From contig JBAZKA010000004.1 of NCBI GenBank assembly GCA_041651015.1, positions 1,010 through 65,009 of the forward strand: a stretch of DNA of 64,000 bases. The letters run 5' to 3'. Position numbers and translations under genes: made by a program. This DNA comes from Patescibacteria group bacterium. Its GTDB lineage: Bacteria; Patescibacteriota; Patescibacteriia; Magasanikbacterales; GWA2-37-8. The notes beneath the pieces are model-generated. The model was not told where the DNA came from. It worked only from the letters and a program-made list of their open reading frames with translations, and did not search any database. The stretch's first letter is position 1; each line of letters opens with the position of its first letter. Below, in pieces: positions 2,001 through 39,424 of this stretch.

Positions 2001-5000
2001 TTGTAATAATTATCAGCGGTGACACTGATGCTGCCATCAACAACTAATTTTTCATTTGGTGTGGTGGTGCCGATGCCGACGTTGCCGGACACGGCAACAG
2101 CAAGGTAATCCGTACCACCAAAGCCACCACTATCAATTTTAAAAGCGTAATTATCATCGGCGTCTATACCGGTTGCGAATGATTGGCTCGCCGGCCTGTT
2201 GTAATAAAGAATCTCAGCATGACCACTCGCATTATCTTGCCGTAGATATACCATTGGCGCTCCATTGCTCGCATCGTTCTCATACACCCCGAAGTCGGTT
2301 TCCGTGGCGCCAGATGCTGAAGAAGTGCCAACATGGATACCATTCAAAAACGCGGATTTGCCTGATGACATAATTCTTGTCGGCGGAGAGTTGGGGTCAG
2401 AGGCGCTTGTACCAAGAGCGATGAAGCCAATATAATTTCCACTATTATTTAAATTGCCGATAAACGCGGTTTGCGTAGCACCGGCAAACAAAGAAATGCC
2501 GTTTATAGATGAAACCGAGGCTGAAACGTCAATCGCCAATCTGACTGAGGGAGTAGAAGTGCCAATCCCCAGCCGATTATTTGTATCATCCCAAAAGAAA
2601 TTGGAATTGTCTTGCGTTAATTTTCCACTGGATGATGCAAAGACCACTGAGCCGACGGTCAGGCCGCCCGTATCGGTTGCTAAAATTCCCAGCGACGAAG
2701 TGGATACCCAATTCGGCGCAGATGCGCCGTTTGATTGCAAAACGTATCCTAATGTACCGGCATTGCCATTAGTTCGTAATGCGCCGGACAAATTCATGTC
2801 GCCGGAAATTGATAACGGATATGATGGCGTGGTGGTATTGATACCAACATTGCCACCGAGAAGAGCGATGGTATTATTTTGAGAGATAGTTTTTGATGTG
2901 GAAGAAACATTTACACCAAAAGAATTATTACCATTGACGGTCAAATTTTGCCCGAACGCGGCGCTGTTGCTGCCGCCGGCAACAGTTAAATTACCAAATG
3001 CAACGCTATAAGTCCCGCTCGCGTATGTGCCATAACCAAAAGCCGCACTGGCTTCGCCGCTGGCTGTCACACCATTTCCAAAAACCGCGCCATATTGTCC
3101 ACTCACGATATTCCCCCAACCACCGCCGGCAAAACCGGCGGAAACATTAACAGTATTATAACCGCCGCCGGCGACAAAAGAGTAAAAGCCACTAGCTTTG
3201 TTTGCCCAACCAGCGGCAAAAGCATCGGTGCCGCTGTAAACTTCATTATTATAACCAAAAGCGGCCCCGCGGGTGCTGGACACAATATTCCCCTCGCCAA
3301 AAGCAACACCGTTCGTACCAGGAACGTTATTTTCATAGCCAAAAGCGCTGGAATAGTTTCCATTGACAGTATTATTTTCACCAAATATAACTGTGGCTCG
3401 ACCCGCGAGATTATTGCCGGCACCACCGACCACACTGGCAAAGGCGGTACTGGACACATTATTATTGGAACCAAAAACCGCGGAATAATCAGCGCCATAA
3501 CTTGTGGATGCGGCAACATCATTACCAGTACCAGAAACTAATGCACCGGTGGAATATACATTGTTAAGGACGCCAAAAACCGTATCGCCCCACCCGGACT
3601 CTGTATTCCCTTCGCCGGCGACAAAAGAATATGTGCCAAACACAAAGTTGTCGGCACCAAACGCCGCTGAATACTCGCCGATATTTGCATCATCCCAGTC
3701 GTCTCCGGTGACAGTCCCTGCTCTAAACGCCGATTTCTCGGGATACCACATCATCCTTGTGCCCGCGCCCTCAACTTGAAGCGCGTTGCCGTCGTCGAAT
3801 GTACCAGCGGCGACGATTGCGCCGGTTCCACCGACATAAAGTTGCGCTAAAGGATTTGTGCTATCAATACCAATTTCACCGTCGTCATCCATAAATAAAA
3901 TTCCCGTACCGGTGCTGTTAAAAATCCCAAAAGAATCATCACTGTTGATATTTAAATCAACGTAATTATTTGTATCATAGCCCATCCTCATAGCCTTGCC
4001 TGATTCATACAACGAAGTCGGGGTCATGATCGGCGAAGTCAACCAGTTATCACCGTTGTTGTCAGTATAAGCATTTGTGGCGACATCTTTGTAAACATTA
4101 TAACTAAAAGGGTTGGAGGTATCATATTTTAATACACGATAACCGGTCGCCCCGTCCACCGCATCCCATGTCCACTCAAGCCTGTAGAGGTTTGACGAAC
4201 CGTTGTCGGTCCAATTACTGGAAAGATTATCGTATGACGATGAGTAAACTCTGCCTGCTGTCGTGTCCTTGAAGGCATAAACGCGCAAGTTGTGCGAATA
4301 ACTATTCGCCGTATAATACTGCTTTGAGGCATACACCGCACTGACTTGCACATTTGATGGAGTACCGACAGTAATCAACGCACCAGCCCCGGTTACTACC
4401 TGAATTTTACCGGCCGGCGTGGTGGTGCCCACGCCGATTGAACCACCATTAAAAATTCCATTGCCGCTGATTCTAAATCCGGCCACTTGATCAGCGCTTG
4501 TTTGATTTTGAATATAATTATTTGAACCCGATGAAGAAGCAAAACCGAGTGACGAAGTGGATACCCATGCCGGCGCAGATGTTCCGTTTGACTGTAAAAT
4601 ATGTCCGGCTGTGCCGGCGTTGCCGTTGATCCGTAATGCGCCAGACAAATTCATGTCGCCGGATACGGTCAAAGGAAAACTGGGAGTGGTCGTGCCCACG
4701 CCAACATTGCCCCCAAGAAGAGCAATCGTGTTTGGTTGCGAAATTATTTGCGCAGTGGAAGATACATTGACGCCAAACGAACCTTCTCCGCTCACAGTTA
4801 AATATTGCCCGAAAGCCGTCGTATAATTACCAGATACTTCGTTGTATATACCGCCGCCCACAAATGAATAATAACCAGTTGAGGTGTTGTACATGCCACC
4901 TCCAATAAAACTGGAGATACCATCATTATAATTAGACTCGCCACCTCCGATAAAACCACTGATACCACTATTAGTATTGTTTTCACCGCCGCCGATAAAA

Positions 5001-7498
5001 GCATTGGTATTTTGTACCTGATTATATGAACCGCCAACTACGGCGGCATACCGGGCGCTTGATGTATTGTATCGGCCTCCACCGATAAAAGACGCGTCAT
5101 TTGTTGTTACATTGCGGAAACCACCGCCGATAAAACCATAATCATGACTGGAGGTGTTGTACATTCCGCCACCGACAAATGAATACAAACCCGAAGCGGT
5201 GTTATACACACCACCGATTACCGCAGAGAATTGAGCGGAGGCATTCGCATACGCACCTATAGCTACAGTGCCTGTCGCCGAGGCAGTACTACCGCCGACC
5301 ATCGCCACTGAATATGATCCGACATTCGCGTCATCCCATTCGTTCCCCATGGCGATTCCGGCTCTAAACGCCGCCTTACGTGGATACCAAATCATACGGG
5401 TGCCGGCACCGGATGATGACAAGGTCGCACCCGAACCAAAAGTTCCATGCGCGATAATACCGCCGTCGCCACCGATGGTAAGCTTGAATTCCGAAGTTGT
5501 TGTTCCGATAGTCGTGGTGCTCATCGTACCGATGCCTCCAATTCTAAATCCGGCCACTTGATCAGCGCTTGTTTGATTTTGAATATAATTATTTGAACCC
5601 GATGAAGAAGCAAAACCGAGTGACGAAGTGGATACCCATGCCGGCGCAGATGTTCCGTTTGACTGTAAAATATGTCCGGCTGTGCCGGCGTTGCCGTTGA
5701 TCCGTAATGCGCCAGACAAATTCATGTCGCCGGAAATTGATAACGGATATGATGGCGTGGTGGTATTGATGCCGACATTTCCGCCGAGAAAAGCAATGAC
5801 ATTATTTTGCGATAAAACCGCGGCAGTGGAAGAAGCATTTACACCGAAAGAATAGGCGCCTGAAACGGTAAGATTACGGCCAAAAGCAGTAGAAACCCAT
5901 CCGCTGGAGGTATTTGACCAACCGAAAACAGTCGAATACGTATCCCCTGCTACATTATGATTACCAAAAGCCGTAGCACCAATGCCACTGGCTATATTTT
6001 CCTGGCCAAAAACGGTAGCGCCTTGCTGACTTGCAATATTGTAACCACCAAAAGCAGATGAATAGAGACCGCTGGCAATATTTCGTGTTCCCAAGGCCGT
6101 AGCGTATTGACCGCTTGATGTATTGTAGTTACCAATAGCAGTAGCGCCTCGGGCATTGGCGATATTATCGCCGCCTAAGGCAGTCGCATAATAGCTGCTA
6201 GCAGTATTACCGTAGCCCATTGATATTGTATAGTCGCTACTAGCAATATTACCACTTCCGACCGCGAACGATCCTTCTCCGGATGCAGTATTATTTGCGC
6301 CCATGGCGATTGATCCCAAGCCGCTAGCCATGGTATTTAGGCCACTCGCAAAAGACCATCCACCAATATTCGCGTCATCCCATTGGTCAGCCCCCGATCC
6401 CATATCATAGGTGGTGCCAGCTCTGAAGGCACCTTTCCGTGGATACCAAATCATGCGCGTGCCCGTACCAGTGGTAGCAAGCACTTGGCCCTGCGGATCG
6501 AGCACCGGAGTACCCACACCACGCGCGATAATACCGCCGTCGCCACCGATGGTAAGCTTGAATTCCGAAGTCGTTGTTCCGATAGTCGTGGTACTCATCG
6601 TACCGATGCCTCCAATTCTAAAATTCGCGGCTTGATCTACTGAATTTTGATTTTGGATAAAATTGCCGGAAGTGGAAGTGACATACCCGGCATCGTTATT
6701 TAGCAGAGAAACGTTTTCTCCCTCAATCATCACATTGCTCGCGAGCGAAGTTGAAGCAATAGTCGTAGTCGCCATCCACGTGCCGCCGTTCAAATATGCA
6801 AATCCGGTCCAACCTGATGAATCAGCGCCCGTGCCGCCGCGCAAAGTGGAAATGAGCGAACCGTTCCAAGTACCGGAAGCGACATTGCCAAAATAAGAAT
6901 TGCCAAAGACGCTAAGAAACCCGGAAACAGTAGCGCCCGTGGAAGTGACATTATTGAAATTAAAATTTCCCGACGCATCAGAGACCGGAATATAAGTCGT
7001 GCTGGTGTTTGTGTTCGGTGCGACTCCCTCCAAATATTTTGAATTAAACGCGTATGGCGTAGCCGTCATTTTTTTTCTCGGTGTTAGCGTCTCGGCGCCG
7101 ATTCTCACTTCCAAATATACATCAGAATAATTTTTAAAAATATTTGCATCCAAAGCATTGGTGCCGGATTCGCCAAAATTAATTGTAAATAATCCTTGAA
7201 TCGGAGTGATACCAACATAGCTCGGGACGCCAACTGTACCGCTCGCTGAATAAAGAGCTGTACCGCCGGTTAAGGAATCATACAAAATAAAATACATCTG
7301 TTGGGTGGTGCTGGCCGACGAACCATTTACCAATAATTTTCCTTGATACGAAATCGTGGATGGTGCGCTGGCTGACTTGGCTTGAAAAGCCGGCGACAAC
7401 AAAATTAAAATAGCGACAAAAATAGTCGCCGATATACTTAAAAAATTCGGGAATTTGCTCCGATTTACTGAATTTTCTTTCGCCGACTCTGTGTTCAT
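1..7498 (-). CDS. Giant secreted/anchored repeat protein (tail-fibre / YadA-head-like beta-roll repeats); start codon inside window at 7498-7496, 3' end runs off the window (>=2499 aa)
   Basis: My translation of the minus strand from ATG at 7498 gives MNTESAKENSVNRSKFPNFLSISATIFVAILILLSPAFQAKSAS... with a hydrophobic N-terminal anchor. It is followed by 14-aa repeats (S/A)xA(F/L)GxxN(I/T)ASGxx typical of Hep_Hag/YadA-head-like beta-rolls. Region 1-2000 carries 17-aa (51-nt) repeats NxAxGxxALxxNTTGxx. The same frame was checked at 1798. Every listed minus-strand ORF in 1-7000 lies in a different frame, consistent with one uninterrupted ORF that is not listed because it is incomplete. Confidence 0.6.
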   Translation of the reverse strand, partial: MNTESAKENSVNRSKFPNFLSISATIFVAILILLSPAFQAKSASAPSTISYQGKLLVNGSSASTTQQMYFILYDSLTGGTALYSASGTVGVPSYVGITPIQGLFTINFGESGTNALDANIFKNYSDVYLEVRIGAETLTPRKKMTATPYAFNSKYLEGVAPNTNTSTTYIPVSDASGNFNFNNVTSTGATVSGFLSVFGNSYFGNVASGTWNGSLISTLRGGTGADSSGWTGFAYLNGGTWMATTTIASTSLASNVMIEGENVSLLNNDAGYVTSTSGNFIQNQNSVDQAANFRIGGIGTMSTTTIGTTTSEFKLTIGGDGGIIARGVGTPVLDPQGQVLATTGTGTRMIWYPRKGAFRAGTTYDMGSGADQWDDANIGGWSFASGLNTMASGLGSIAMGANNTASGEGSFAVGSGNIASSDYTISMGYGNTASSYYATALGGDNIANARGATAIGNYNTSSGQYATALGTRNIASGLYSSAFGGYNIASQQGATVFGQENIASGIGATAFGNHNVAGDTYSTVFGWSNTSSGWVSTAFGRNLTVSGAYSFGVNASSTAAVLSQNNVIAFLGGNVGINTTTPSYPLSISGDMNLSGALRINGNAGTAGHILQSNGTSAPAWVSTSSLGFASSSGSNNYIQNQTSADQVAGFRIGGIGTMSTTTIGTTTSEFKLTIGGDGGIIAHGTFGSGATLSSSGAGTRMIWYPRKAAFRAGIAMGNEWDDANVGSYSVAMVGGSTASATGTVAIGAYANASAQFSAVIGGVYNTASGLYSFVGGGMYNTSSHDYGFIGGGFRNVTTNDASFIGGGRYNTSSARYAAVVGGSYNQVQNTNAFIGGGENNTNSGISGFIGGGESNYNDGISSFIGGGMYNTSTGYYSFVGGGIYNEVSGNYTTAFGQYLTVSGEGSFGVNVSSTAQIISQPNTIALLGGNVGVGTTTPSFPLTVSGDMNLSGALRINGNAGTAGHILQSNGTSAPAWVSTSSLGFASSSGSNNYIQNQTSADQVAGFRISGNGIFNGGSIGVGTTTPAGKIQVVTGAGALITVGTPSNVQVSAVYASKQYYTANSYSHNLRVYAFKDTTAGRVYSSSYDNLSSNWTDNGSSNLYRLEWTWDAVDGATGYRVLKYDTSNPFSYNVYKDVATNAYTDNNGDNWLTSPIMTPTSLYESGKAMRMGYDTNNYVDLNINSDDSFGIFNSTGTGILFMDDDGEIGIDSTNPLAQLYVGGTGAIVAAGTFDDGNALQVEGAGTRMMWYPEKSAFRAGTVTGDDWDDANIGEYSAAFGADNFVFGTYSFVAGEGNTESGWGDTVFGVLNNVYSTGALVSGTGNDVAASTSYGADYSAVFGSNNNVSSTAFASVVGGAGNNLAGRATVIFGENNTVNGNYSSAFGYENNVPGTNGVAFGEGNIVSSTRGAAFGYNNEVYSGTDAFAAGWANKASGFYSFVAGGGYNTVNVSAGFAGGGWGNIVSGQYGAVFGNGVTASGEASAAFGYGTYASGTYSVAFGNLTVAGGSNSAAFGQNLTVNGNNSFGVNVSSTSKTISQNNTIALLGGNVGINTTTPSYPLSISGDMNLSGALRTNGNAGTLGYVLQSNGASAPNWVSTSSLGILATDTGGLTVGSVVFASSSGKLTQDNSNFFWDDTNNRLGIGTSTPSVRLAIDVSASVSSINGISLFAGATQTAFIGNLNNSGNYIGFIALGTSASDPNSPPTRIMSSGKSAFLNGIHVGTSSASGATETDFGVYENDASNGAPMVYLRQDNASGHAEILYYNRPASQSFATGIDADDNYAFKIDSGGFGGTDYLAVAVSGNVGIGTTTPNEKLVVDGSISVTADNYYKYNGVNLAYASTSLNNYYFGNAGNLTMTGASNTASGYQALYSNSTGYGNIANGSLALYNNTTGYANVASGYQALYSNTTGAGNIANGYMAMGSTTANNTSNYNVANGYYALHDNTTGDFNIASGWHSLRYNTTGDRNVAIGRAPLRNNTTGSYNVASGDSALYDNITGNYNVGIGSYSLYSNTTSDANVGIGYQALYNNIVASNTAVGYQALYSNTTGVGNIAMGYLSLYANQTGGYNSAYGINALYANTTGNYNTALGAGAISLNQTGSFNTAVGVGALATATSSDDNTAVGYGALYVNSSGSNNTAMGRGAMLDNTLGSYNTGIGRGALKGNQIGNGNVALGYYSLYDATSSNANIALGYNSLRYNTASSNTAVGYEALYSNTTGVMNTAQGYQAMYSNTTGYRNSAFGYQAMGSTTAIGTGMYDSAMGYQALFNNTSGMYNSAIGYQALYNNTTGAYNTALAYDALYNNTTGGNNTAIGLTALYQNITGSYNTALGVNALRISTTSLANTAIGYGSLYNNTVSSNTAVGYEALYDNTAGFGNVAQGYQALHDNTTGDYNVGVGNDAVRYNTTGNNNVGVGYIALGSSVTGSNNVGIGVYTLRYFDGDSNNTAIGYNAGAQGSGGSYNTMLGSESDISGTVTGGTAVGYAALVSHNYATAIGNGA
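4480..6640 (-). repeat. Two near-identical ~1071-bp tandem modules inside the giant gene (partial third copy near 2690-2880)
   Basis: Identical stretches at 4480-4680 vs 5550-5740 and ~5450 vs ~6530. Antisense ORFs 4557.. and 5628.. share 33 identical N-terminal residues. Module boundary encodes ...GGNVGI(N/G)TTTPS(Y/F)PL(S/T)(I/V)SGDMNLSGALRINGNAGTAGHILQSNGTSAPAWVSTSSLGF... Confidence 0.65.
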
Positions 7499-7583
7499 AA
7501 GTCGGTTAATTTCAAGACATCTATATTATAGCATTTTTTACGCCTCAAAAGAATGTTTTTTTGCGAAGTTATCCACAGAAATA

Positions 7584-28863: not shown

Positions 28864-29003
28864 GGTTCAGATAAAAACGCGCCCAAACAGGCGCCCCGCT
28901 CACGGTTCAATATTACCTTACTCAAAGAGTAAAATCAAGGGAATATATTCATTGATTTATCCCCACATATTTGATAAAATTAACCAATAATAACTCATAC
29001 AAT

Positions 29004-30485
29004 ATGAAAAAATATCTATTAGAAATAATCGTTTTCGTTTGCGGCGCGGTGGTGATGATACTGGAACTCGCGGGCTCCAGAGTGCTCGCGCCATACCTCG
29101 GCACGTCGCTCATCGTCTGGTCCAGTTTGATTGGCCTGATTCTCGGCGCTTTAAGTTTCGGTTATTGGTGGGGTGGGAAAGTCGCGGACATTAATCCAAA
29201 CTGGAAAACATTTTCTGGAATAATTTTTTTGGCCGCTGTTCTTATTGGCATAACGGCGATTTTAAAAGAACCAATTTTGCTTTTGTTTGACGAGATAATT
29301 AATAACATAAAAATAAACTCCGTTCTTTCCACTACCATTCTATTTGTACCGGCGAGTATTATGCTCGGCATGATTTCGCCTTATGCCGTGCGCCTAAAAA
29401 TCAACGACGTACAAAACTCGGGTAAAACCGTGGGTAATTTATATGCAATATCCACTTTGGGCAGTATTTTCGGCACATTTCTCGCGGGATTTTATTTGCT
29501 GGCAACTGTTGGCGCGACCATGATATTATACATTCTTGCCATCACTCTAATTTTTATTTCCATAATTTCATTTTTCAAATCAGATTTAAAAATCAAAGCC
29601 GCCACTATCATCATTCTGATTTGTTTCGGTTCGTTCACCACGGCCATGAATATATTGGCGGCACAAAACGGGACGATTGACACTGACTCAAGTTATCAAC
29701 ACATAAAAATTTTTGACGGAGTAGACGCATCTTCAGGCCGGACCGCGCGCTACTTAAAAACCGAAAATGTCGGTACGCAATCCGGAATGTTTTTGGACAG
29801 CGATGATTTGGTTTTTGGCTACACCAAATTTTATGATTTATACAGATATTTAAAACCAGATGCCAAAAACGCGCTAATGATCGGGGGCGCGGCCTACACA
29901 TATCCCAGATATTTTTTACGCAATACAACCGGGACGACTATGACTGTGGTGGAAATTGACCCAAAAATCACCGAATTGGCCAAAAAATATTTTGGTTTAA
30001 CCGATGACCCGCGAATGAAAATTGTTCATGAAGACGGCCGGGTATTTCTGAACGGCAACACGGAAAAATTTGATATAATTTTCGGCGACGCGTTCAAATC
30101 ACTCACTCCCCCATACCAACTTGCCACCCGAGAAGCCGTAGAAAAAATTTATGAAAATCTAAACGATGACGGAGTCGCGCTCATCAACATAATTTCCGCA
30201 ATAAACGGAGATAAAGGAAAATTTTTGCGCGCTGAATACGCCACCTACCAATCTGTATTCCCCGAGGTGCAAATATTTCCGGTGAGGGAGCCGAATAACG
30301 GCGAAATCGTGCAAAACATCATGCTTGTCGCCTTAAAAAACAAACGCGCCACCTGGAATGGTGGCGACGCTCAAATGCAAATTTTGTTGGATAACCGATG
30401 GACAAAATCTATTGATAACGACTTGCCGATCCTCACTGATGATTTCGCGCCGGTGGACCAATATATGCTCAAGCAGGTTTTCTAA
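29004..30485 (+). CDS. Fused multi-TM / spermidine synthase-like (SpeE-fold methyltransferase) membrane protein
   Basis: Multiple N-terminal TM helices followed by GGAAYTYPRYF...VVEIDPKITELAKKYFGL...DIIFGDAF (spermine/spermidine synthase family signature). Start at MKKYLLEII (ATG 29004). Confidence 0.7.
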   Translation: MKKYLLEIIVFVCGAVVMILELAGSRVLAPYLGTSLIVWSSLIGLILGALSFGYWWGGKVADINPNWKTFSGIIFLAAVLIGITAILKEPILLLFDEIINNIKINSVLSTTILFVPASIMLGMISPYAVRLKINDVQNSGKTVGNLYAISTLGSIFGTFLAGFYLLATVGATMILYILAITLIFISIISFFKSDLKIKAATIIILICFGSFTTAMNILAAQNGTIDTDSSYQHIKIFDGVDASSGRTARYLKTENVGTQSGMFLDSDDLVFGYTKFYDLYRYLKPDAKNALMIGGAAYTYPRYFLRNTTGTTMTVVEIDPKITELAKKYFGLTDDPRMKIVHEDGRVFLNGNTEKFDIIFGDAFKSLTPPYQLATREAVEKIYENLNDDGVALINIISAINGDKGKFLRAEYATYQSVFPEVQIFPVREPNNGEIVQNIMLVALKNKRATWNGGDAQMQILLDNRWTKSIDNDLPILTDDFAPVDQYMLKQVF

Positions 30486-31410
30486 ACTTTCTCCGCAATA
30501 AACATAGTATCCGTCCAACTAAAATAACACAAAACGCGATGATAGCAACGCGCATCCACACATCTAAATTTTTATACCAAACAACTTGGCCGGCCGGTTC
30601 AACACTTTCTATCCGCTCATTACCCGCTTTATCCACGGCCTTAATCAAAATATGGCTCTCTAAATTTTGGTCAGATAATACTAGCGGGCTGCCCACTTCG
30701 CGCCACTTGGCAAATGTTAAACCAATCCGGCTCTTGGCCGATTTTTTTTCATAGCGGTCAATTCCCGAATTCTTGTCTTGAGCCGTAAAAGACAAGAACC
30801 ATCGGTTATCAAAAATTTCAGGCGAACGGTCAATGATCGGAGTAAATGATTCCGGTGGGTCCACGTCCTCCCAAAAATTAACTTCTTGTCCGATGAGTTT
30901 CGGTTGTATACCCACGCCTTCGTTGACAATGAATTCCCACTCAGTTGAACTCACTTCCGTCGGCGTGCCCAAACCATCATTTTTTAAAATTAATAAATCA
31001 GAAAAAATTATTTTACCCGCGCCCGAGGCAACGGCTCTAAATTTAATATCAAATAACTTTCCCTTGGTTCCATAAAACCCGCCGGGCGTTACTCCAGAAA
31101 AAAATATGCCGAAATAATCCGGCGCCGGTTTTCTTACCCACAAATTAATAACCGAACCGCCGTCGCTGATGTCAATTAACTCCAGCGACTTGGGAAAGAA
31201 AACTTTACCCTCAAACGCATTCAAAACTTCTTCGTCGGTATTTAAATACACCGAGACAAATAGCTCATCATCAACCGAAACAGTCGGCGTTTGTGATTCA
31301 AAATATAACTGCGCGCAACGCGCCTCCGGCGTATTAAACGCGAAAATATAAGCGACAACAATCGCCGCGAAAATAAATCTCAAATAAATATTAAAAATTT
31401 TATGCGCCAT
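30469..31410 (-). CDS. Membrane-anchored cohesin-domain protein (scaffoldin-like)
   Basis: N-terminal signal, ~140-aa region LYFESQTPTVSVDDELFVSVYLNTDEEVLNAFEGKVFFPKSLELIDISDGG...GKLFDIKFRAVASGAGKIIFSD that parallels type-I cohesin beta-sandwich signatures, C-terminal TM (VAIIAFCVILVGRILCLL) plus basic tail. Confidence 0.5.
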   Translation of the reverse strand: MAHKIFNIYLRFIFAAIVVAYIFAFNTPEARCAQLYFESQTPTVSVDDELFVSVYLNTDEEVLNAFEGKVFFPKSLELIDISDGGSVINLWVRKPAPDYFGIFFSGVTPGGFYGTKGKLFDIKFRAVASGAGKIIFSDLLILKNDGLGTPTEVSSTEWEFIVNEGVGIQPKLIGQEVNFWEDVDPPESFTPIIDRSPEIFDNRWFLSFTAQDKNSGIDRYEKKSAKSRIGLTFAKWREVGSPLVLSDQNLESHILIKAVDKAGNERIESVEPAGQVVWYKNLDVWMRVAIIAFCVILVGRILCLLRRKFRKPA

Positions 31411-31420
31411 GTAAATTTTA

Positions 31421-32500
31421 TCAGCCGGTCCAATAATAGGCCATTATACTAAAATCCGTTAAATTTATTTTATCATCGGCGTTAAGCTGTTCCGCTTCTT
31501 TTAATATAAAAGTGTTGCTCAATGTTCTTTTGTACCAATAGGCGGCGATGGAAAAATCCACCAAATTCACACGGCAATCGCCATTCAAATCACCCTTAAG
31601 AATTTTACCATCGCACAACTGTTTAGCCACCACGGTTGACGAGCCGATCTTAAAATTAACGATTTTACTAAACGGGCTAACCTGAGTTTTATAAAACGAT
31701 TGGGCTTTCGCAAAATAATCACCCAGTATTAGATCGGTCGTATCCAAAGTATAGGCATACGCGCCGGCCGCGTTGGTCTTGACCTTTACAGAAATTATTT
31801 CTGTGGAACTCACGATAAGGTTTACATCAACCCCGGGCAAGGAGTGGCCGGAAAAATTTATACTTTCCCCCTTTTTCACTTCGCTTTTGTCGGCCCAGAT
31901 GGTCGGAGCAATATATATTCCACTCACGGTAGTCACCACGCCTTCTGTCACATTTAAAGTAATGGTTTGCATGGCGGAACGGAAATCACCGCCATCAACC
32001 GAATACACCCCGAAGACATAGTTGCCCCCGGTTATTTTTAGAACGCTGGCGGAAAAATTTCCGGCGGCATCAGCCATTGTAGTAGTGGCAATTTGTCCAT
32101 CGCGCAAAATTACTACTTGCCCGAATGGATAGGCAATACCCATAAAATTTACTTGGGTGGCGACCGGCACAGTGACAACTCCACCTCCCCCACCACCCCC
32201 GCCACCATGATGCGGGGCGATATATTCACACAACGAGGCATCATAATCACAAGCAATGGTGCAGGATACCGTGCCACTGGTATAACCGAGCGACGCGCAA
32301 CTGCCACCGCCCATATCGGCGCCGTCGCATTGTTCCGGGCCTTCGGCCACGCCATCACCGCAAACAGAAATTTCCACATTAGCATTCACATAAGAATTTG
32401 TGGCAGCGGAAGCTTTTTGGATAATAACAAAACCGCCGACGATCAGTGTGAGCGTCAGCGGCGCGAAAAACAATAAAGTTGAACGCAGTTTCGAATCCAT
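31421..32500 (-). CDS. Secreted Cys-rich-repeat / Ig-like protein with C-terminal dockerin
   Basis: Signal peptide. CGDGVAEGPEQCDGADMGGGSC...C (myxo-type cysteine-rich repeat pattern). Poly-Gly linker. C-terminal GDLNGDCRVNLVDFSIAAYWY ... LNADDKINLTDFSIMAYYW, i.e. two dockerin Ca-binding repeats. Confidence 0.55.
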   Translation of the reverse strand: MDSKLRSTLLFFAPLTLTLIVGGFVIIQKASAATNSYVNANVEISVCGDGVAEGPEQCDGADMGGGSCASLGYTSGTVSCTIACDYDASLCEYIAPHHGGGGGGGGGVVTVPVATQVNFMGIAYPFGQVVILRDGQIATTTMADAAGNFSASVLKITGGNYVFGVYSVDGGDFRSAMQTITLNVTEGVVTTVSGIYIAPTIWADKSEVKKGESINFSGHSLPGVDVNLIVSSTEIISVKVKTNAAGAYAYTLDTTDLILGDYFAKAQSFYKTQVSPFSKIVNFKIGSSTVVAKQLCDGKILKGDLNGDCRVNLVDFSIAAYWYKRTLSNTFILKEAEQLNADDKINLTDFSIMAYYWTG

Positions 32501-32512
32501 TTTTCAATGAAA

Positions 32513-33124
32513 TTATTCCTCTTTTTTCTTTACGCTAATACCGATATTAAACGAAAAGAATTTACGTATAAGCAGTACCACAATGACAAACGCAATCGCT
32601 CCGAGCAAAACCAAACTCCACGGATAATACAATTTGTAAAGCGAGGTCAAGCGATAATAAACTCCCACAAAAAAATTCGCCGGCGCGACGCTAAAATACA
32701 ATTTGGTCGCGGCCGCCACACCAACAGAGGTCTCTCCGGCCACTGATGCTTTCTTGGCCGGGTGTCCTTCAAGATACGCAAAATATTCGCCCGGCTCAGC
32801 GCCTTTTAATGGCAAAGTCAGTCTAACTTGCACTAATTGCGCTTTGCCCGGTTCCAGATAAAATGTTGATGGCTGGAAACTTAACCATTCGCGAGGCGGC
32901 ATTTTTTGCGGTTGAGTGGTGTTGTATTCCACTGAGACACCATACTCTGAGGCTTCGTCGCCGGTATTGATCACGGCAAATGAAGGCAGGTCATAAATTA
33001 GACCGGCTTTCATAGCCTCAGGCACTTCAATCTTTCCCGTGCCCACCCCAACGCCGACGCTGGCCATGGCTGCTATCGGTAGCAATAATATTCCCCCCAC
33101 TATTGCGGCAATATATTTATTCAT
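32513..33124 (-). CDS. Surface protein: signal peptide + beta-sandwich-like domain + C-terminal TM anchor (CscA/DUF916-like architecture)
   Basis: MNKYIAAIVGGILLLPIAAMA signal. C-terminal LVLLGAIAFVIVVLLIRKFF TM with charged tail. Domain assignment by architecture only. Confidence 0.4.
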   Translation of the reverse strand: MNKYIAAIVGGILLLPIAAMASVGVGVGTGKIEVPEAMKAGLIYDLPSFAVINTGDEASEYGVSVEYNTTQPQKMPPREWLSFQPSTFYLEPGKAQLVQVRLTLPLKGAEPGEYFAYLEGHPAKKASVAGETSVGVAAATKLYFSVAPANFFVGVYYRLTSLYKLYYPWSLVLLGAIAFVIVVLLIRKFFSFNIGISVKKKEE

Positions 33125-33167
33125 AGAAGAAAATTCAGAAGTCGTAATAGCGGATTAATTTTTATTA

Positions 33168-33680
33168 TTAGTGAGCGGCGGCAGACACTGTGACCACCAT
33201 TGATTGTTGGGTATAATCTGCCACGGCAGTAGGAGTATTTATCAACAAGTCCATAGACTGCGTCGGAGTGGTCGTAGTCAAATCAGATTTCATATTGGTA
33301 TAAGTGCTGGAATTCATCGCCGTATAATTTGCGGCGCTGGTGCATGTCGTGGTGCAAAATTTATGCACATAAATACTGGAACCGGCCGTTGATGATAAAC
33401 CCCAGTTGCCGGGAGTGGTGGAAGAGCCTCTCACGGTTAAGTCCACTGATACGTTACCGTTGTTGGTGACAGTTTGCGTGTCAATGGTGGTGGTAGTGCT
33501 TTTAATCGTGTTGAGCGCCATCGTGCCGTAAGCCACAGTTCCATCCGTAACAGTTACGGAAATATTTTCCACTGTCACGGTCGCGGCCACATTACCGGTT
33601 GTGGCGGCCCAAACTACTGAGGCGGCCGAGACAGCCGCAAATCCCACAACGAATGCTACCAAGAGAAATGCCTTTTTCAT
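33168..33680 (-). CDS. Small secreted protein homologous to the C-terminus of the adjacent giant protein (WxL-like / TasA-like module)
   Basis: Signal MKKAFLLVAFVVGFAAVSAASVVWAATTGN. VTVTDGTVAYGT...TVTNNGNV...NWGL...YVHKFCTTTC...NYTAM aligns with giant-protein residues ~1440-1590. Confidence 0.55.
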   Translation of the reverse strand: MKKAFLLVAFVVGFAAVSAASVVWAATTGNVAATVTVENISVTVTDGTVAYGTMALNTIKSTTTTIDTQTVTNNGNVSVDLTVRGSSTTPGNWGLSSTAGSSIYVHKFCTTTCTSAANYTAMNSSTYTNMKSDLTTTTPTQSMDLLINTPTAVADYTQQSMVVTVSAAAH

Positions 33681-33889
33681 ATTATTAAAAGATTATTAAT
33701 AATTTATAGTAGTGTTTACAACACTATTTATTTTTGCTTGATAAAAAATTTATTTTCTCCCCTCTAACTACAATTCGCTCCAGTATATTATACACCAATT
33801 TTACGTTTCTAAATACGGCCAGTTATCCACAGGGCTTCGCTACGCTACCTGCCTGCCGGTAGGCAAGCGCCCCGCAAACGCAACTTCGT

Positions 33890-36800
33890 CTATGATTGGG
33901 TCGCGAGCAATGTCACATCCACATCCTGCTCACCATAACAAGTGGAAGCTGAGGGAGCGGTGAGACGTAATTGAAATTGGGTGGTACCATCCGCGGCCAC
34001 ATTGGTATCAATATTTTGGTAGGTGGTAGTCATGGCCGTATAGTTGGTCGGCGGGGACGAACAATCTAAATCCGTGTCATTACAAAACCGATGTACGTAT
34101 TGGTCTGCGCCGTTTGAAGTCGCGAGCGTCCACGTGCATCCCCCGCCCGAACCATCTTGCCCTTTGATGGCAAAATCTTCGGTCACATTACCGTTATTGG
34201 TGATTGTTTGCAAATCGCCAAGGTCAATCGTGCTCACACTGGAATTTTCCGCAATGGTTCCATAGCTCACAACTCCGTCGGAAACAGTGACAGACACAAC
34301 CGGCGTAACGGAATTTACTTCATCGTAATCTTTATCAATCGTAGTTGTGATAGCGTTAAGCGAGGTGGTGCAATAACCCCATTGCCAAAAAGTAAAGGTG
34401 GTTGAGGCACCAGCCGGCAAATCATCCCAACGCCGAACGAAATATATATCATCAGCTTCATTTGTTGATTTAACCGCCACTTGAAGCGGCCATTCAATGG
34501 TGGAACTGACCGGGGAGTGTTGAAAATAATAACCGTAAGTCGCCGGATCATCCTGGTCAAAAATCACACCCATGGCCGCCCAGATACCGGTATCGTAAGT
34601 TGTAAACCATTTTTTGGTTAACGATGACATGGTGATTTGACGTTCTACCGTGCTGCTCGTCGTTTCACCGGCCACCCAACCCTTATCATTAGTATTACGA
34701 TCAGTACCAAGCCATTGCTCGCGACCCCAAACTAACGGATAATCATAAGCTGTGGAACTGGCATTGGTAAAAGTGTAAACATTTTTTAAATAACGTTTAC
34801 TGGCATAAAATGTTTGGTATCGGTATGCGTCAATGCCGGTAGCCAGTTGTTGCGCCCAACCATTGGCTGCGCCATCCGAATGCACCAAAGTGGTGATGGA
34901 ATTATCGTCCTCGCTGACAATGTAATTCGCCCATTCATCTTGTTTCCATTTAATATCGCCGGCATAATATCCGGAACTATCTATCCTTACTGTATCATTC
35001 ACAACGACAGCCGTGCGTTCCATACAATCCAAGTTCACGTCATTGTCACTGCTATTGCGGCAAGACATCTCCACCTGTTCGCCCGCGCCTTCATAGCCGC
35101 CGCCAAACATTGGTGTGTTGATAAACTGATTGGCAAATACTAAGCCATTATAAAATAAACGCTCACCGATATTATATGTATATAAACGATCATAACGCGT
35201 GGCAAACAAATCAGTGTCCGAAGTAAAAGAAAAAGCCACTGTTTTATAAGTCGTACCCATGGAATTATCTTGGATATATAACGTATGATGGCCGCTATCC
35301 CACCACCAACAATCCGTAGTGGAAGCAGCGGTCCCTTCTGAAAGAGCCGTGCCGGCCAAGGACACCGATGTGATATTAATATCACTCGTCGTCGGATGGA
35401 ACGGAAAAGCAATCGCGACATTGGAATAGGTAGCCGCGGCATTGACGGAAAAATCCGCCACTTCGTAATTCCAATGGTCAACGCTCCAAGTGGGATTAAA
35501 CTCGGCGCCATTGCCCATGGCCGCGGTGCTGATGGCATTCCATCGCCGTGTAATATATGTGGTAAAATTTGCCGTGGTCGTTGAATAATCAATTGATGAA
35601 AAATTTGAACTGCTGGATAATTGCAAAGTGGTTCGAAACGTGCCGGTATTTGGATCGGCACAGCCATTGCAAAAATTTGAACCCGGGTAAATTACCCCTT
35701 CATAACGTCCGTCAATGGCATCCCATGTCAAATTTGTGTAAAGATTATCCCCCACGGAATTGGTGGTACTGGCTCGCGCATAAGGATAATCAAGATAACT
35801 CAAGCCATTCAAAGTCATATTGACGGGAATGGCGCCGCTCCAACCATCAGAAGTCTTGCCAATGGAACCGGAAATAGTGGGAAGAGCAAACACGGTGGAA
35901 CCGGAAATTGCGACTGTGCTGGAAGGTCCGGTGGTACCACTGCTCACCGTCACGCCGGTACTGGGATCGGAAATTTGGATTTCCAATGTTTCTCCCAAAG
36001 TAGCACCCGAAGCAACATCCAACACTGTATAAACACACATCGCCGAAGTGGTGCTGATACCGACCGAACCGGAAAATGTTGAAGTGCCATTGGCGGCGCT
36101 AAACCCATCGGTATCAGTGGAGCCAAATTGAGTTTCCGTACCGCCATAACTTTCCGAAGCGCAATCATACGGTGTGGTAGCGTCTAAATCGTAATAAAGT
36201 TTAATGTTATCCAAATCAGTTTGCGCATCCACGGTGCCATTTTCAAAAATACTAATACCGGTGACATTGCGCGAGCCGGCGTTTTCAATAATGGAAAAAT
36301 ATCCGCCGACATAATTATCAGTGGAAGGAATGGTCATGCCCGTGGCTTGACTGCCTCCGGTACCGACAGTGACAGAACTGACCAGAGCGGTGGAACCGGT
36401 AATGGCCACTGCGGACGACGGCCCGACCGCGCCGCTGCTGATCGTCACGGCCGTGCTGGGATTGGTAATTTGAATTTCAATTGTTTGCCCTTCGCCCGCG
36501 CCCGAGCCCACATCCACAACCGCATAAACGCACATGGCTTGGGCCGAGGTCACGGCCACGGTTCCGGAAAATGTTGATGTCCCGTTGCTAGCGCTAAAAC
36601 CATCAGTATCAGTGGAGCCATATTGAGTCTCGGTGCCATTATAACTAACAGATGCGCAATCATAAGGCGTCACTGTATCTAATTCATAATATAATTTGAT
36701 ATTATCTAAATTATTTTGCGCGTCCACGGTGCCGATTTCATTTATGGATATACCGGTGACATTGCGAGAAGTGGCATCGCCGACAATGTAGAAAGCGCCG

Positions 36801-38668
36801 CCGACATAATTATTGGTTGATGAAACGACCATGGTCGCGGTTTGATTGCCAGTGGTTCCAACCGTCACGTTGTTTGAAGAAGCATTATAAGTCGCGTAAA
36901 TGGAATATTTCAAAGCGCCTAGTGTCGGCGAGGTAAACGAGGACGGCCAGGTGCCGTATGTTTGCGTCTTTGACAGACTCTGATTTGTGGCGCCAGTAGT
37001 ATAATAAAAATAATTTTGGCTGTCATTATCATTTTTTAACAACCAATAGGTGGAACTGCTGATAGTCGGCGAGGTTGATAATTTATAGGCATACCAAGCT
37101 TTTGTGGTGCCGACAGCGGTAGACGCCGAATTCGCCACCAAATTATAGCTGGAATTATAGATACCATAACCCGCATAGTAGCCGGAATCCGGATACATAT
37201 AGGCGGTGGTTGTGACGACTGTAGCGCCGGCCGCGCCCGAGCCGGAATCAAATTTTGAACCGACCATTCTTCCATTTATTGACGAAGTATAACTCGTCCC
37301 GGCCGTGGTGTTGCCAAAGGTCGGGTCAACGATTACCGGATAAACCGCCTCATCCAAAAAATATTGCGGCACGGTGATGGTCATTTTTCCGCTAACCTCG
37401 TCAATATTTAATTCGCACCAAGTATATCGTCCGCTCGCGTCAAATGCCTGCGGACGATAAATTGAAAACGCCATGCCGGTGCCATAATTTTTGCCACCCA
37501 TGGCTGAGTAATCTCCTTGCAAACCGCCCTTATAATAAACCGCGTAAGACCCAACCACGTTTATCGGACGATGATATTCATGGCATTCGGTCGGACTGCA
37601 ACTTGGGTCGCTCATTTCCACATTCAAAGGCGGCTGATAGAAAAACTCTAAATTTTCCGTAGCAATATCAAATTCAAAAACATTAGTGCTCGGTTTTGTC
37701 TTTAAAGCAAATTCAAATTCATAACCATCAACATTTTCACTCATCCCGTCGGAATATTTTTCATTCGGGATAGTGACAGTTTTATCATAAAAAATATATT
37801 GACGATGCGATGTTTCATATTTGATAACTTTCTCTTCGCCCAATTCATCTCTGTCAATAAACAATGCTTTCTCGGTGGACACACTTGAATCAGACAATGG
37901 TTCGTTCAGGATAGTGGAAAAATTTGCGAAAATTGCTTCTTCACCCTGAGAGTATTGAGTAATAGATACGACATCTTCACTCGGAGTATTAGTCGGGGTA
38001 TCAACGACAGTTGTGTCGGTTAAAACAGTTTCTTCGCTCAAAACCGTATCCGCCGTAGTAGTAGTGATACCGGAGTCACCAGTGACTGTGTCATCACCGG
38101 TTTCCGGCGTCAAAATAATACCTGAGGATGTCGCGACCTCCGCCTCCACCTTTACACCCAACACTTCGGCCGGCGCTTTTGTCTCTACCAAGGTATTGCC
38201 TGATATTTCCCCCTCAAACTTCGGAATTATTTTCATACTCGCTTCCCCATCCCAGCGTTCAATGGTTATTGCCGGAGAAAACGAATCGCCTTCGGGCGCG
38301 CCGATCTTGTAGGCCACACCGTCAATTTCTTTGGCCGGCAAAACAAAGGCTGATCCTTCCTGGCGATATTTGTCACGCAATGGCGAGGCGGCTAATTTAC
38401 GAGACAAAGAGATTGAATCCATAGCGCTTTCATCCGGAGCAAACAAACTGGCTGTCACAATTCCGACCAAGGAATTATCCTGATACCAAGGTATGTTTGA
38501 TGCAGCCGAACGCGTATCGCTCCACACCGGCCAGCCGTATACAAAAACAGCGATGAATACGCCCAAACAGGCGAAAATAATCGCTTTTTCAAAAAATAAT
38601 TTATTTTTTAGATACGTCAAAAAATTTCGCCGCATAAAAGAACTAAATCCATTTTTATTTTTTCTCAA
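33890..38668 (-). CDS. Giant membrane-anchored surface protein (1592 aa) with internal tandem ~160-aa repeats and a C-terminal WxL-like/TasA-like module
   Basis: N-terminal TM (AIIFACLGVFIAVFVYGW). Ser/Thr/Gly-rich beta-rich sequence. C-terminal ...VSVTVSDGVVSYGTIAENS...TITNNGNV...CTWTLATSNG...YVHRFCNDTDLDC...NYTAM. Start overlaps the stop of the upstream gene (translational coupling). Confidence 0.6.
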   Translation of the reverse strand: MRKNKNGFSSFMRRNFLTYLKNKLFFEKAIIFACLGVFIAVFVYGWPVWSDTRSAASNIPWYQDNSLVGIVTASLFAPDESAMDSISLSRKLAASPLRDKYRQEGSAFVLPAKEIDGVAYKIGAPEGDSFSPAITIERWDGEASMKIIPKFEGEISGNTLVETKAPAEVLGVKVEAEVATSSGIILTPETGDDTVTGDSGITTTTADTVLSEETVLTDTTVVDTPTNTPSEDVVSITQYSQGEEAIFANFSTILNEPLSDSSVSTEKALFIDRDELGEEKVIKYETSHRQYIFYDKTVTIPNEKYSDGMSENVDGYEFEFALKTKPSTNVFEFDIATENLEFFYQPPLNVEMSDPSCSPTECHEYHRPINVVGSYAVYYKGGLQGDYSAMGGKNYGTGMAFSIYRPQAFDASGRYTWCELNIDEVSGKMTITVPQYFLDEAVYPVIVDPTFGNTTAGTSYTSSINGRMVGSKFDSGSGAAGATVVTTTAYMYPDSGYYAGYGIYNSSYNLVANSASTAVGTTKAWYAYKLSTSPTISSSTYWLLKNDNDSQNYFYYTTGATNQSLSKTQTYGTWPSSFTSPTLGALKYSIYATYNASSNNVTVGTTGNQTATMVVSSTNNYVGGAFYIVGDATSRNVTGISINEIGTVDAQNNLDNIKLYYELDTVTPYDCASVSYNGTETQYGSTDTDGFSASNGTSTFSGTVAVTSAQAMCVYAVVDVGSGAGEGQTIEIQITNPSTAVTISSGAVGPSSAVAITGSTALVSSVTVGTGGSQATGMTIPSTDNYVGGYFSIIENAGSRNVTGISIFENGTVDAQTDLDNIKLYYDLDATTPYDCASESYGGTETQFGSTDTDGFSAANGTSTFSGSVGISTTSAMCVYTVLDVASGATLGETLEIQISDPSTGVTVSSGTTGPSSTVAISGSTVFALPTISGSIGKTSDGWSGAIPVNMTLNGLSYLDYPYARASTTNSVGDNLYTNLTWDAIDGRYEGVIYPGSNFCNGCADPNTGTFRTTLQLSSSSNFSSIDYSTTTANFTTYITRRWNAISTAAMGNGAEFNPTWSVDHWNYEVADFSVNAAATYSNVAIAFPFHPTTSDINITSVSLAGTALSEGTAASTTDCWWWDSGHHTLYIQDNSMGTTYKTVAFSFTSDTDLFATRYDRLYTYNIGERLFYNGLVFANQFINTPMFGGGYEGAGEQVEMSCRNSSDNDVNLDCMERTAVVVNDTVRIDSSGYYAGDIKWKQDEWANYIVSEDDNSITTLVHSDGAANGWAQQLATGIDAYRYQTFYASKRYLKNVYTFTNASSTAYDYPLVWGREQWLGTDRNTNDKGWVAGETTSSTVERQITMSSLTKKWFTTYDTGIWAAMGVIFDQDDPATYGYYFQHSPVSSTIEWPLQVAVKSTNEADDIYFVRRWDDLPAGASTTFTFWQWGYCTTSLNAITTTIDKDYDEVNSVTPVVSVTVSDGVVSYGTIAENSSVSTIDLGDLQTITNNGNVTEDFAIKGQDGSGGGCTWTLATSNGADQYVHRFCNDTDLDCSSPPTNYTAMTTTYQNIDTNVAADGTTQFQLRLTAPSASTCYGEQDVDVTLLATQS
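35880..36860 (-). repeat. Two tandem ~480-490-bp coding repeats inside the giant surface gene
   Basis: Protein copies share ...NYVGG(A/Y)F(Y/S)I(V/I)...SRNVTGISI.ENGTVDAQ..LDNIKLYY.LD..TPYDCAS.SY.GTETQ.GSTDTDGFSA.NGTSTFSG... DNA at 35931-36045 vs 36421-36540 and at 36181-36330 vs 36665-36810 is clearly related. Confidence 0.6.
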
Positions 38669-39044
38669 TCTTCTTCGCCATTTTATAAATTTTGCCGGCT
38701 GTGGCCGAAACAGCTCTGTCCACCGCTTCTTTCGCTGATTCAGTATAATCCTCGGATTTATCCTCGGCCCAACTCTTTGCTTTTTTAATGGCCGCGTCTT
38801 TGACCGCCGTGCCCACTCCCTTGAACACCGAATTCATGGCAAAAGAAATCATCTCCACTTTTTCTTGGATAAAACCGATGGCGTCGGCCAAGGATTGCAG
38901 GCGGACGCGAAATTCTTCAATAATTTGGCTGGTATTTTTCAAAATTTTGCCCGCGTAATAAAACATCCAGCATAAAAAAACCGCCACCCAAATAATACAA
39001 AAAGAAATCACGATATACAAAATATCTTTTGATGATTCTATCAT
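38655..39044 (-). CDS. Small membrane protein with N-terminal TM and coiled-coil tail (DUF948-like), first gene of the surface operon
   Basis: LYIVISFCIIWVAVFLCWMFYYAG TM. Lys/Ala-rich helical tail. Stop overlaps the giant gene start. Confidence 0.45.
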   Translation of the reverse strand: MIESSKDILYIVISFCIIWVAVFLCWMFYYAGKILKNTSQIIEEFRVRLQSLADAIGFIQEKVEMISFAMNSVFKGVGTAVKDAAIKKAKSWAEDKSEDYTESAKEAVDRAVSATAGKIYKMAKKIEKK

Positions 39045-39121
39045 AGTTCCTCCGAGTTAATATATAAATTTTTCTACTTTTATATTATACCACGGCAAGA
39101 TGAAATTTGGAACAAGACAAC

Positions 39122-39424
39122 CTAAGCAGTTTCCTTTATCCTAATCTCGCGTCTTCCACTAATAAGACCGAGATTACCTTCTATGGAATTTTGTGAAATA
39201 ATTTCTGGCACTAAACCGTATCTCTGCCCGTTTGTAAGTTCAATGTCAACACTTTTTCCGTCAACATTGTGGAATGTTTTGCAAATACCCTCGCCATCTG
39301 TCAACGCTCTGTTGCCTGTACTTGTAATCACAACTGTCTTACCCTCAAATATTTGAGTCAAATGTTCGACCACCTCATCGGTGACCTTATTTTCTACTCC
39401 AACATCCATGTGACTTTCTTTCAT
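39122..39424 (-). CDS. Hypothetical 100-aa protein
   Basis: Clean ORF upstream of the surface operon promoter region. No family recognised. Confidence 0.4.
   Translation of the reverse strand: MKESHMDVGVENKVTDEVVEHLTQIFEGKTVVITSTGNRALTDGEGICKTFHNVDGKSVDIELTNGQRYGLVPEIISQNSIEGNLGLISGRREIRIKETA

Follow-up and report, generated by a model that had tools for sequence, protein, structure and literature searches.

How do Patescibacteria attach to other cells? Partner attachment in this group (the Candidate Phyla Radiation, CPR) is poorly understood; most of its lineages have not been cultured, and the surface proteins they encode are annotated as hypothetical. The question is raised here by a locus in a 64,000-nucleotide stretch of DNA from a Patescibacteria group bacterium (contig JBAZKA010000004.1), called the window in what follows, in which six genes, designated g1 to g6 in reading order, lie next to each other on the minus strand. 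All coordinates are those of the window, and the features described are on the minus strand unless another strand is named. A first-pass annotation had read these genes as one six-gene operon for a cell-surface complex and as candidate attachment machinery. All six minus-strand open reading frames are present at the coordinates it claimed, and the topologies it gave are fitted by the hydrophobic segments, which are found at the N-terminus of all six proteins, as signal or anchor, and again as C-terminal transmembrane (TM) segments in g4 and g6. In this study we find that five of the genes, g2 to g6 (30469-38668), recur together across Patescibacteria lineages, that g2 and g3 share a module whose best structural matches are chaperone-usher pilins, and that g4 appears to be a remote homologue of the N-terminal domain of the chaperone PapD. 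That g2 to g6 make up one conserved Patescibacteria cell-surface assembly is much more secure than the mechanism we propose for it, a donor-strand pilus assembled without an usher, to which we give an even chance.

A five-gene cassette conserved across Patescibacteria

One genome per species was scanned with a profile of the g4 family, which matched 150 genomes, and 80 loci of these were analysed. Open reading frames were called in all loci and searched with family profiles of g3, g4 and g6 and with both ends of g5, co-occurrence being counted only in loci with enough flanking DNA. The 80 loci belong to Parcubacteria, Microgenomates, WWE3, WS6/Dojkabacteria and many further Patescibacteria lineages, and the gene order, all on the same strand, is a large protein carrying the module described below, the small g3, g4, g5 and g6. 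The small g3 gene is the immediate upstream neighbour of g4 in 72 of 76 loci, g5 is the immediate downstream neighbour of g4 in 65 of 70, and g6 follows g5 in 56 of 62 (about 90%); a large module-bearing protein is encoded upstream on the same strand in 43 of 57, and all five genes are present in 34 of 48. Intergenic spacing in the related loci is -4 to about 50 nucleotides (nt), and the order is strictly kept across deeply divergent lineages. For example, a Daviesbacteria locus has the same five genes in the same order on the same strand, encoding a large protein of 365 amino acids (aa) with a C-terminus 63% identical to that of g2, a g3 of 173 aa, a g4 of 245 aa (52% identical to the g4 of the window), a Cys-rich g5 of 216 aa with a dockerin-like tail, and a g6-like protein of 338 aa. 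Several cassette-bearing records (L009, L018, L023, L026, L076 and others) are titled Gammaproteobacteria, Bdellovibrionales, Pseudomonadales or Bathyarchaeia; these are probably mislabelled or mis-binned contigs.

Conserved synteny, which the first-pass annotation had put forward as a check on its operon, is borne out very strongly by the shared order in Daviesbacteria and across the 80 species-level loci, and its picture of a co-conserved surface operon with a large and a small module protein, a TM partner, a dockerin protein and a cohesin protein holds for g2 to g6. The operon of six genes does not hold. The first gene, g1 (38655-39044), encodes a small membrane protein of 129 aa with a hydrophobic segment at aa 4-35; its only phmmer match is in the near-identical contig L004, and because it is missing from all 80 related loci, the conserved unit comprises five genes, not six. 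Judging from this distribution, g1 is a lineage-specific gene that adjoins the conserved cassette and is not a member of it. The DUF948-like identity once given to g1 was rejected, since neither Pfam nor NCBIfam supports it and the protein is found only in L004. We found no description of the cassette in the searchable literature, most subscription journals being outside that search, which agrees with the earlier remark that no family with this layout was known. Relatives of g4 occur in 150 species-level genomes, and Pfam and NCBIfam recognise nothing in the five families but the dockerin tail.

The related loci fall into two architectural subtypes. In the first, as in L010, L020 and L046, a long g5 (at least 300 aa, with immunoglobulin (Ig) domains) is accompanied by a second g6-like protein of about 580 aa (range about 450-600), which is the case in 20 of 25 loci; in the second, as in L023, L027 and L044, a short g5 (180-260 aa) occurs without a second g6-like gene, in 24 of 25 loci. 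The association of long g5 with the second g6-like gene is strong (Fisher p 4e-8, uncorrected for phylogeny). The window locus has a long g5, yet no second g6-like gene. Beyond the cassette, this second g6-like protein is the only conserved large gene product seen in the 80 loci. The existence of two subtypes would also suit a reading in which there is neither a fibre nor a single machine, the module being a common Ig-like C-terminal domain and the operon a set of independent, co-regulated envelope proteins. Ig-like folds are very common, the structural scores reported below are all modest and the interactions among the proteins are putative, all of which would agree with such a reading. It does not account for the tight spacing and strict gene order in deeply divergent lineages, and it is also opposed by the module being fixed at the extreme C-terminus of the large protein, by a near-invariant strand specific to the small protein, and by the constant pairing of a dockerin gene with a cohesin gene. 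We consider it improbable, the least probable of the readings weighed here.

A pilin-like module shared by g2 and g3

The small protein, g3 (33168-33680, 170 aa), consists of a signal peptide and the module alone and is our proposed major fibre subunit. The large protein, g2 (33890-38668, 1592 aa), is the proposed tip adhesin; it is read from a TTG start, an ATG 11 codons downstream being the start chosen in the near-identical contig L004, begins with a signal or anchor at aa 23-50, and ends in the same pilin-like module (33893-34297, aa about 1458-1592). The claim that the small protein is a paralogue of the C-terminus of the giant is confirmed by the alignment of g3 46-167 with g2 1464-1589 at 40% identity (BLASTP E 1e-21), and the A3 profile matches the g2 module at E 1.4e-46. 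A profile search of 1.84 billion representatives places the module family at 1762 clusters at 50% identity (E<=1e-3); each member listed is either about 170 aa long or a longer protein with the module at its end, and among the 150 matches listed there is no bridge to a named family. The close homologues of g3 number 66, are 160-190 aa long and all lack Pfam domains, and the g3 profile has no match among PDB sequences.

The small and large proteins differ consistently at one place. In 74 small proteins a near-invariant TATVTATVTVQN stands right after the signal peptide, and in the family-profile alignment it is missing from 56 large proteins. In g3 this N-terminal extension is TGNVAATVTVENISV (33558-33602, aa 27-41), the family consensus is TATVTATVTVQNI, and across the small proteins the segment reads T-A-T-V-T-A-T-V-T-V-Q-N-I. 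It is the most conserved segment of the g3 family (V31 0.93, A33 0.99, T34 0.97, V35 0.99, T36 0.95), and its alternation of small hydrophobic residues and Thr is that of an amphipathic beta strand. The module of g2 has no such extension. In the large proteins the profile match begins at about position 36, compared with about position 3 in the small proteins; their module starts with VV-S-V-S-V-S-D-G and is joined directly to unrelated upstream sequence, and in 61 of 62 of them it is followed by just 0-3 residues at the C-terminus. We propose that the extension of the small protein is a donor strand.

Structural comparison points in the same direction. The AlphaFold2 model of g3 has a mean pLDDT (the per-residue confidence of the model) of 91.9 and shows a signal helix, coil at residues 20-41 and then a beta sandwich, so that the extension is coil in this monomer model. 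A Foldseek comparison of the model with 350,542 PDB chains gave mostly subunits of donor-strand fibres among its first 30 or so matches, the best being the CS20 major subunit (E 2.2e-3, prob 1.00), PapE (0.99), the CsuE pilin domain (0.97) and FimA (0.94), with FimG, CfaB, CsuA/B, PapA, CupB6, CanX and TLP-1 further down. These scores are modest and none reaches E<=1e-3. The best matches of the modelled module are thus chaperone-usher pilins, which suggests that it resembles these most.

The remainder of g2 behaves differently from its module. Proteins in the g2 position of related loci are 301-1592 aa long with the module at the end, which leaves a passenger region of about 130 to 1450 residues across genomes, and the passenger region of g2 itself has almost no homologues at other loci. 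It contains a tandem duplication of a 165-aa unit (35888-36868, aa 601-765 and 766-927; 68% identical, BLASTP E 3e-78), a unit present as one copy in the L032 large protein as well, and g2 has no Pfam, NCBIfam or PDB sequence match. The lack of recognisable domains, the duplication and the scarcity of homologues are consistent with an adhesin. In type 1 and P pili the adhesins FimH and PapG carry a pilin domain at the C-terminus, behind a variable N-terminal region, and pair in this way with the subunits FimA and PapA. A sortase-type pilus is ruled out for the cassette, as both g2 and g3 end in the module itself with no LPXTG signal and the cassette has no sortase.

A membrane-tethered protein related to PapD

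The third cassette protein, g4 (32513-33124, 203 aa), comprises a signal peptide, a PapD-like Ig domain (aa about 25-146) and a C-terminal TM helix (aa 164-198), and is proposed to be a membrane-tethered chaperone. Its AlphaFold2 model (pLDDT 80) shows a single Ig sandwich with helices behind it, the TM segment among them. Of the three families searched (g3, g4 and g6), g4 ranks first both in number of homologues and in typical identity, with 534 homologues (clusters at 90% identity) that are typically 50-60% identical, some of which bear the JGI label 'P pilus assembly chaperone PapD'. By hhalign, the g4 family matches an alignment of 11 chaperones (FimC, MrkB, PefD, Caf1M, DraB, FaeE, FedD, CssC and three unnamed) over 96 columns with a probability of 79% and E 1.6e-5. 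The match pairs g4 48-151 with FimC 55-156; it starts at the VxN strand and extends as far as a strand whose last residues are KLYYRP in FimC and KLYFSVAP in g4, and which we take to be the donor strand of the chaperone, bearing its invariant Lys. Weak, sub-threshold PapD_N matches were also obtained for 20 of 50 g4 members, the best covering residues 48-147 over positions 20-124 of the 126-position profile, and PapD_C has no match in the g4 family among the families listed. The g4 profile has no match among PDB sequences. From these alignments g4 appears to be remotely homologous to the N-terminal domain of PapD. A further observation on g4 is that its mature N-terminus (aa 22-33) carries a nearly invariant (K/R)-I-G-V-G-V-G-T-G-K-I right after the signal peptide; in a non-significant alignment this segment falls on the GVALGATRVIY strand of FimC, which presumably holds the invariant Arg8.

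The combination of small module protein, large module protein and Ig partner also recalls another kind of surface complex. Patescibacteria are not known to have an outer membrane, in common with the bacteria that carry WxL clusters. These clusters consist of a small WxL protein, a large WxL protein and a WxLIP of the architecture DUF916-DUF3324-TM helix (PMC9772566, PMC10599100), the same triad as in our cassette, and two WxL motifs on neighbouring strands are what defines the WxL family (PMC9772566). The cassette could accordingly be a non-filamentous wall complex similar to the WxL/Csc systems of Firmicutes, in which the module would bind the wall or envelope non-covalently, g4 would be the counterpart of WxLIP and stabilise the module by strand insertion, g2, which like the large WxL protein has a variable region and a C-terminal domain, would display host-binding domains, the domain-only g3 would be a filler or regulator, and g5 with g6 would form a second displayed pair. 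The module does carry one invariant W-x-L (W93, L95). It has no second conserved Trp, as against the two motifs of the family, and at E<=0.1 no WxL or Peptidase_M73 (PF12389) match was found in 62 g3-family members, nor any DUF916 or DUF3324 match in 50 g4-family members, among the families listed. In the window, the WxL hidden Markov model (HMM) has no match in g2 or g3 even at E<=1, and Pfam and NCBIfam searches of the six proteins gave no WxL, DUF916, DUF3324, Peptidase_M73 or DUF948 match. Moreover, g4 has one Ig domain instead of two, the cassette has no LPXTG protein, belongs to another phylum and has a dockerin-cohesin pair in addition, and the WxL view leaves unexplained both the near-invariant strand found only in the small proteins and the dominance of pilins in the Foldseek ranking; no solved WxL domain structure was among the PDB fold matches, so that ranking includes no direct fold comparison. 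We regard a WxL-like complex as unlikely. Membership of the module in the WxL or TasA families, raised in the first-pass annotation, is not supported, and its description of g4 as CscA/DUF916-like is right about the signal peptide and the C-terminal TM helix and fails on the domain.

A dockerin protein and a probable, divergent cohesin family

Next in the cassette is g5 (31421-32500, 359 aa), the proposed base adaptor, which consists, from N to C, of a signal peptide, a short conserved strand, a Cys-rich DUF4215-like domain (aa about 40-92; 32225-32383), a Gly8 linker, two Ig-like domains and a dockerin (aa 302-354; 31439-31597). The N-terminal domain of the family has six nearly invariant cysteines. 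The window dockerin matches Dockerin_1 with E 1.3e-3 over positions 1-53 of 57, a sub-threshold score (19.3 bits against a cut-off of 22.9), and both of its Ca-binding repeats, DLNGDCRVNLVD and LNADDKINLTD, are legible. Orthologues of g5 match Dockerin_1 in 41 of 65 cases (best E 6.2e-11), Big_6 in 26 of 65 and DUF4215 in 6 of 65; short variants such as that of Daviesbacteria apparently have one dockerin repeat only. On the basis of these repeats and family matches we accept a dockerin in g5.

The last protein, g6 (30469-31410, 313 aa), is the proposed membrane anchor for g5. It has a probable, divergent cohesin domain (aa about 30-160; 30931-31323), an Ig-like domain (aa 207-265; 30616-30792) and a C-terminal TM helix (aa 280-309; 30484-30573), and an OmpL47-type barrel domain was detected in the NCBIfam and Pfam scan (E 3.8e-4). 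The window protein has no Pfam Cohesin (PF00963) match and, searched alone, no match among PDB sequences. At the level of the family, Pfam Cohesin is found in 8 of 44 members (best E 1.7e-5), the family profile matches four cohesin modules and nothing else in the PDB (best 5aoz, E 0.0086, over the first 55 residues or so only), and several g6 homologues are named 'cohesin domain-containing protein' by NCBI. A cohesin in g6 is thus probable as a remote match. The dockerin and cohesin proposed in the first-pass annotation are supported for the two families, while in the window itself g5 stays below threshold and g6 gives no Cohesin match. The adjacency of g5 and g6 in about 90% of loci is our sole ground for supposing that the dockerin of g5 may bind the cohesin of g6. 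As in known cohesin-dockerin pairs, g5 has a duplicated Ca-binding dockerin segment and g6 probably belongs to a divergent cohesin family; unlike them, this pair has no enzymes attached, uses the TM helix of g6 itself in place of an SLH (S-layer homology) domain or sortase, and is embedded in a pilus-like cassette.

Another feature of g5 connects it to g3. A few residues past the signal peptide and right before the first cysteine, g5 orthologues have a conserved strand, (V/I)-N-A-T-(V/I)-K-I-S-(V/I), which resembles the N-terminal extension of g3. The motif [VI]xAT[VIA]x[VIL] was counted in the first 80 residues and is present in 50 of 82 small g3 proteins and 35 of 74 g5 proteins, compared with 1 of 61 large proteins, 1 of 87 g4, 0 of 95 g6 and 7 of 1178 other open reading frames of at least 100 aa in 84 loci, a contrast that is inflated, though large, as the motif was defined after both families had been seen. 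The similarity suggests that the g5 strand may be able to occupy the site of the g3 extension.

A proposed donor-strand pilus

Taken together, these observations lead us to propose that g2 to g6 build an usher-independent, donor-strand-complemented pilus with a tip adhesin, a PapD-like tethered chaperone and a dockerin-cohesin anchor, a proposal that in our judgement could equally well turn out right or wrong. All five proteins would be exported by Sec. The single PapD-N-like Ig domain of g4, standing on its membrane helix, would hold the freshly exported pilin-like modules. The module of g2 would act as strand acceptor only and take the distal tip, because a C-terminal module without an N-terminal extension can only accept a strand, so that its long, lineage-variable passenger region would be displayed as an adhesin. 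Subunits of g3 would then be added successively, the N-terminal strand TATVTATVTVQN of each being inserted into the preceding module. Finally g5, which has a similar N-terminal strand and no pilin fold, would cap the last g3, and its C-terminal dockerin would plug into the membrane-anchored cohesin of g6 and fix the fibre to the cell. A g5 that caps the base of the fibre and docks into g6 would explain why a dockerin-cohesin pair travels with pilin-like genes; no other step in our scheme is as speculative as this capping and anchoring.

The proposal builds directly on gene order, co-conservation, paralogy, fold similarities, remote PapD_N homology, dockerin and cohesin at the family level, and on which proteins have or lack the N-terminal strand. 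From these we infer strand exchange, the order of the subunits, the chaperone role of g4, the interaction of g5 with g6 and the anchoring it would provide, and attachment to a host or partner. Several points weigh against it. The g3 family gives nothing in hhalign against the type 1 pilins FimA, FimI, FimF and FimG, and a scan of 62 of its members finds no consistent Pfam match. The probability of the match between g4 and the chaperones is only 79%, the g4 family is not significantly similar to FimC alone (Prob 0.3%), and g4 has one Ig domain where true chaperones have two. By the criteria used, one component is missing from roughly a quarter of the loci that have enough flank. The motif contrast is affected by the post hoc definition given above, and the g5 of the window has A-N where the motif has A-T.

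Compared with the chaperone-usher systems (Fim, Pap, CFA/I-CS, Csu), the cassette has an apparently pilin-like subunit fold, a conserved N-terminal extension on its small subunit, a large protein with a variable N-terminus and a C-terminal subunit domain lacking the extension, and an Ig partner remotely homologous to PapD_N, all in one operon. It differs in having no usher, a family without match in any of the six proteins in Pfam or NCBIfam, in its occurrence in cells that are not known to have an outer membrane, in the one-domain, TM-tethered form of g4 as against a soluble, two-domain periplasmic chaperone, in the absence of sequence similarity between the g3 family and the Fimbrial families, and in the added dockerin-cohesin pair.

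An N-terminal donor strand, proposed here for g3, is also a feature of TasA and of archaeal filaments of the TasA superfamily (bundling pili, cannulae and threads), fibres that occur in cells without an outer membrane (PMC9245690, PMC12518558). There is some fold similarity, and PF12389 homologues have been reported in Patescibacteria in general, which would fit a self-assembling, chaperone-free donor-strand fibre like TasA or the archaeal threads, with g4 as an anchor or nucleator analogous to TapA or AbpB and with g5 and g6 unrelated to the fibre. Such a fibre is not favoured by the lack of a Peptidase_M73/TasA match in the 62 members, and, in contrast to TasA/TapA/SipW, no dedicated signal peptidase is recognised in the cassette (the six proteins give no match to a signal-peptidase family, and none was recognised in the synteny map, which sought cassette families only). 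Chaperone-usher pilins outrank TasA-like subunits in Foldseek, the PapD_N homology of g4 together with its numerous and closely similar homologues is more what one would expect of an assembly factor than of a passive anchor, and about 90% of loci retain g5 and g6. A TasA-like fibre seems to us very unlikely.

The cassette is, then, not a member of the chaperone-usher, WxL/Csc or TasA families, and the system whose working it most resembles is a chaperone-assisted donor-strand pilus. It is a strong candidate for the attachment of Patescibacteria to their partners. The attachment machinery of the first-pass annotation is right in outline; its WxL/DUF916 label gives way to the pilin and PapD-like evidence, which offers a more specific mechanism. 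Our wider suggestion, of a phylum-wide, usher-independent relative of the chaperone-usher pathway with a tethered single-domain PapD-like chaperone, a hypervariable tip and a fibre fixed by dockerin and cohesin, is tentative and perhaps doubtful. If true, it would extend donor-strand-complemented, PapD-assisted pili to bacteria without an outer membrane and give cohesin-dockerin a role as fibre anchor, its first structural role as a pilus anchor. The hypervariable tip protein would become a candidate determinant of host or partner specificity, the fibre a candidate for the filaments that tie episymbionts to their hosts, and functions would be assigned to thousands of unannotated proteins. SEML1_0315, an essential 'dockerin' protein of the cultured Saccharibacterium Southlakia epibionticum (PMC10633639), was considered as a counterpart and rejected, as it is stand-alone with unrelated neighbour genes.

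Intergenic gaps and promoter-like sites

The first-pass annotation gave all genes at the locus as overlapping or separated by gaps of less than 45 nt, which is wrong in one place: g2 and g3 are 209 nt apart (33681-33889), the other gaps being short. The gap between the large and the small gene is also the longest in 49 related loci, with a median of 88 nt versus 4-30 nt elsewhere. Nor is the single promoter of that annotation upheld, since a perfect TATAAT is found both upstream of g1 (39089-39084, within a promoter-like extended -10 element TGgTATAAT at 39084-39092) and inside the g2-g3 gap (33792-33787), each as a consensus match only; the scan offers TAGAAA-18-TATACT (33811-33782) as an alternative reading in the gap. 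Promoter-like sites were not above shuffled sequences in the promoter and terminator consensus scan (24 vs 19.8 +/- 4.5). The gap may hold an internal promoter that raises the expression of g3, and the longest gap with a promoter-like site before g3 is what would be expected if a shaft subunit were made in excess. Right after the g2 stop codon lies a GC-rich stem-loop (33840-33885) with no U-run behind it, which might reduce read-through into g3 or make the g2 message more stable. The RNA fold of the 209-nt gap is no more stable than that of shuffled sequence (z -0.1), and an Rfam search of the gap gave no match. Possibly g1 shares a transcript with the cassette.

Neighbouring genes and other features of the window

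Proteins identical to g6 and g4 are already deposited at NCBI as hypothetical, namely WC457_03850 and WC457_03860 of 'Patescibacteria group bacterium'. Upstream of g1 to g6 lie pheT and pheS, and between pheT and g1 there is an open reading frame of 100 aa (39122-39424, minus strand) without a hydrophobic segment. Downstream, a convergent spermidine-synthase-like membrane protein (504 aa, 28971-30485, plus strand), whose orthologue in L004 has a Pfam Spermine_synth match, shares 17 nt (30469-30485) with the 3' end of g6 and is followed by dnaE. Another open reading frame, longer than 2508 aa (2-7525, minus strand), continues beyond the left edge of the window; it encodes a second giant surface protein, with an N-terminal signal peptide followed by many repeats of the type NTAxGYxALxxNTTG.

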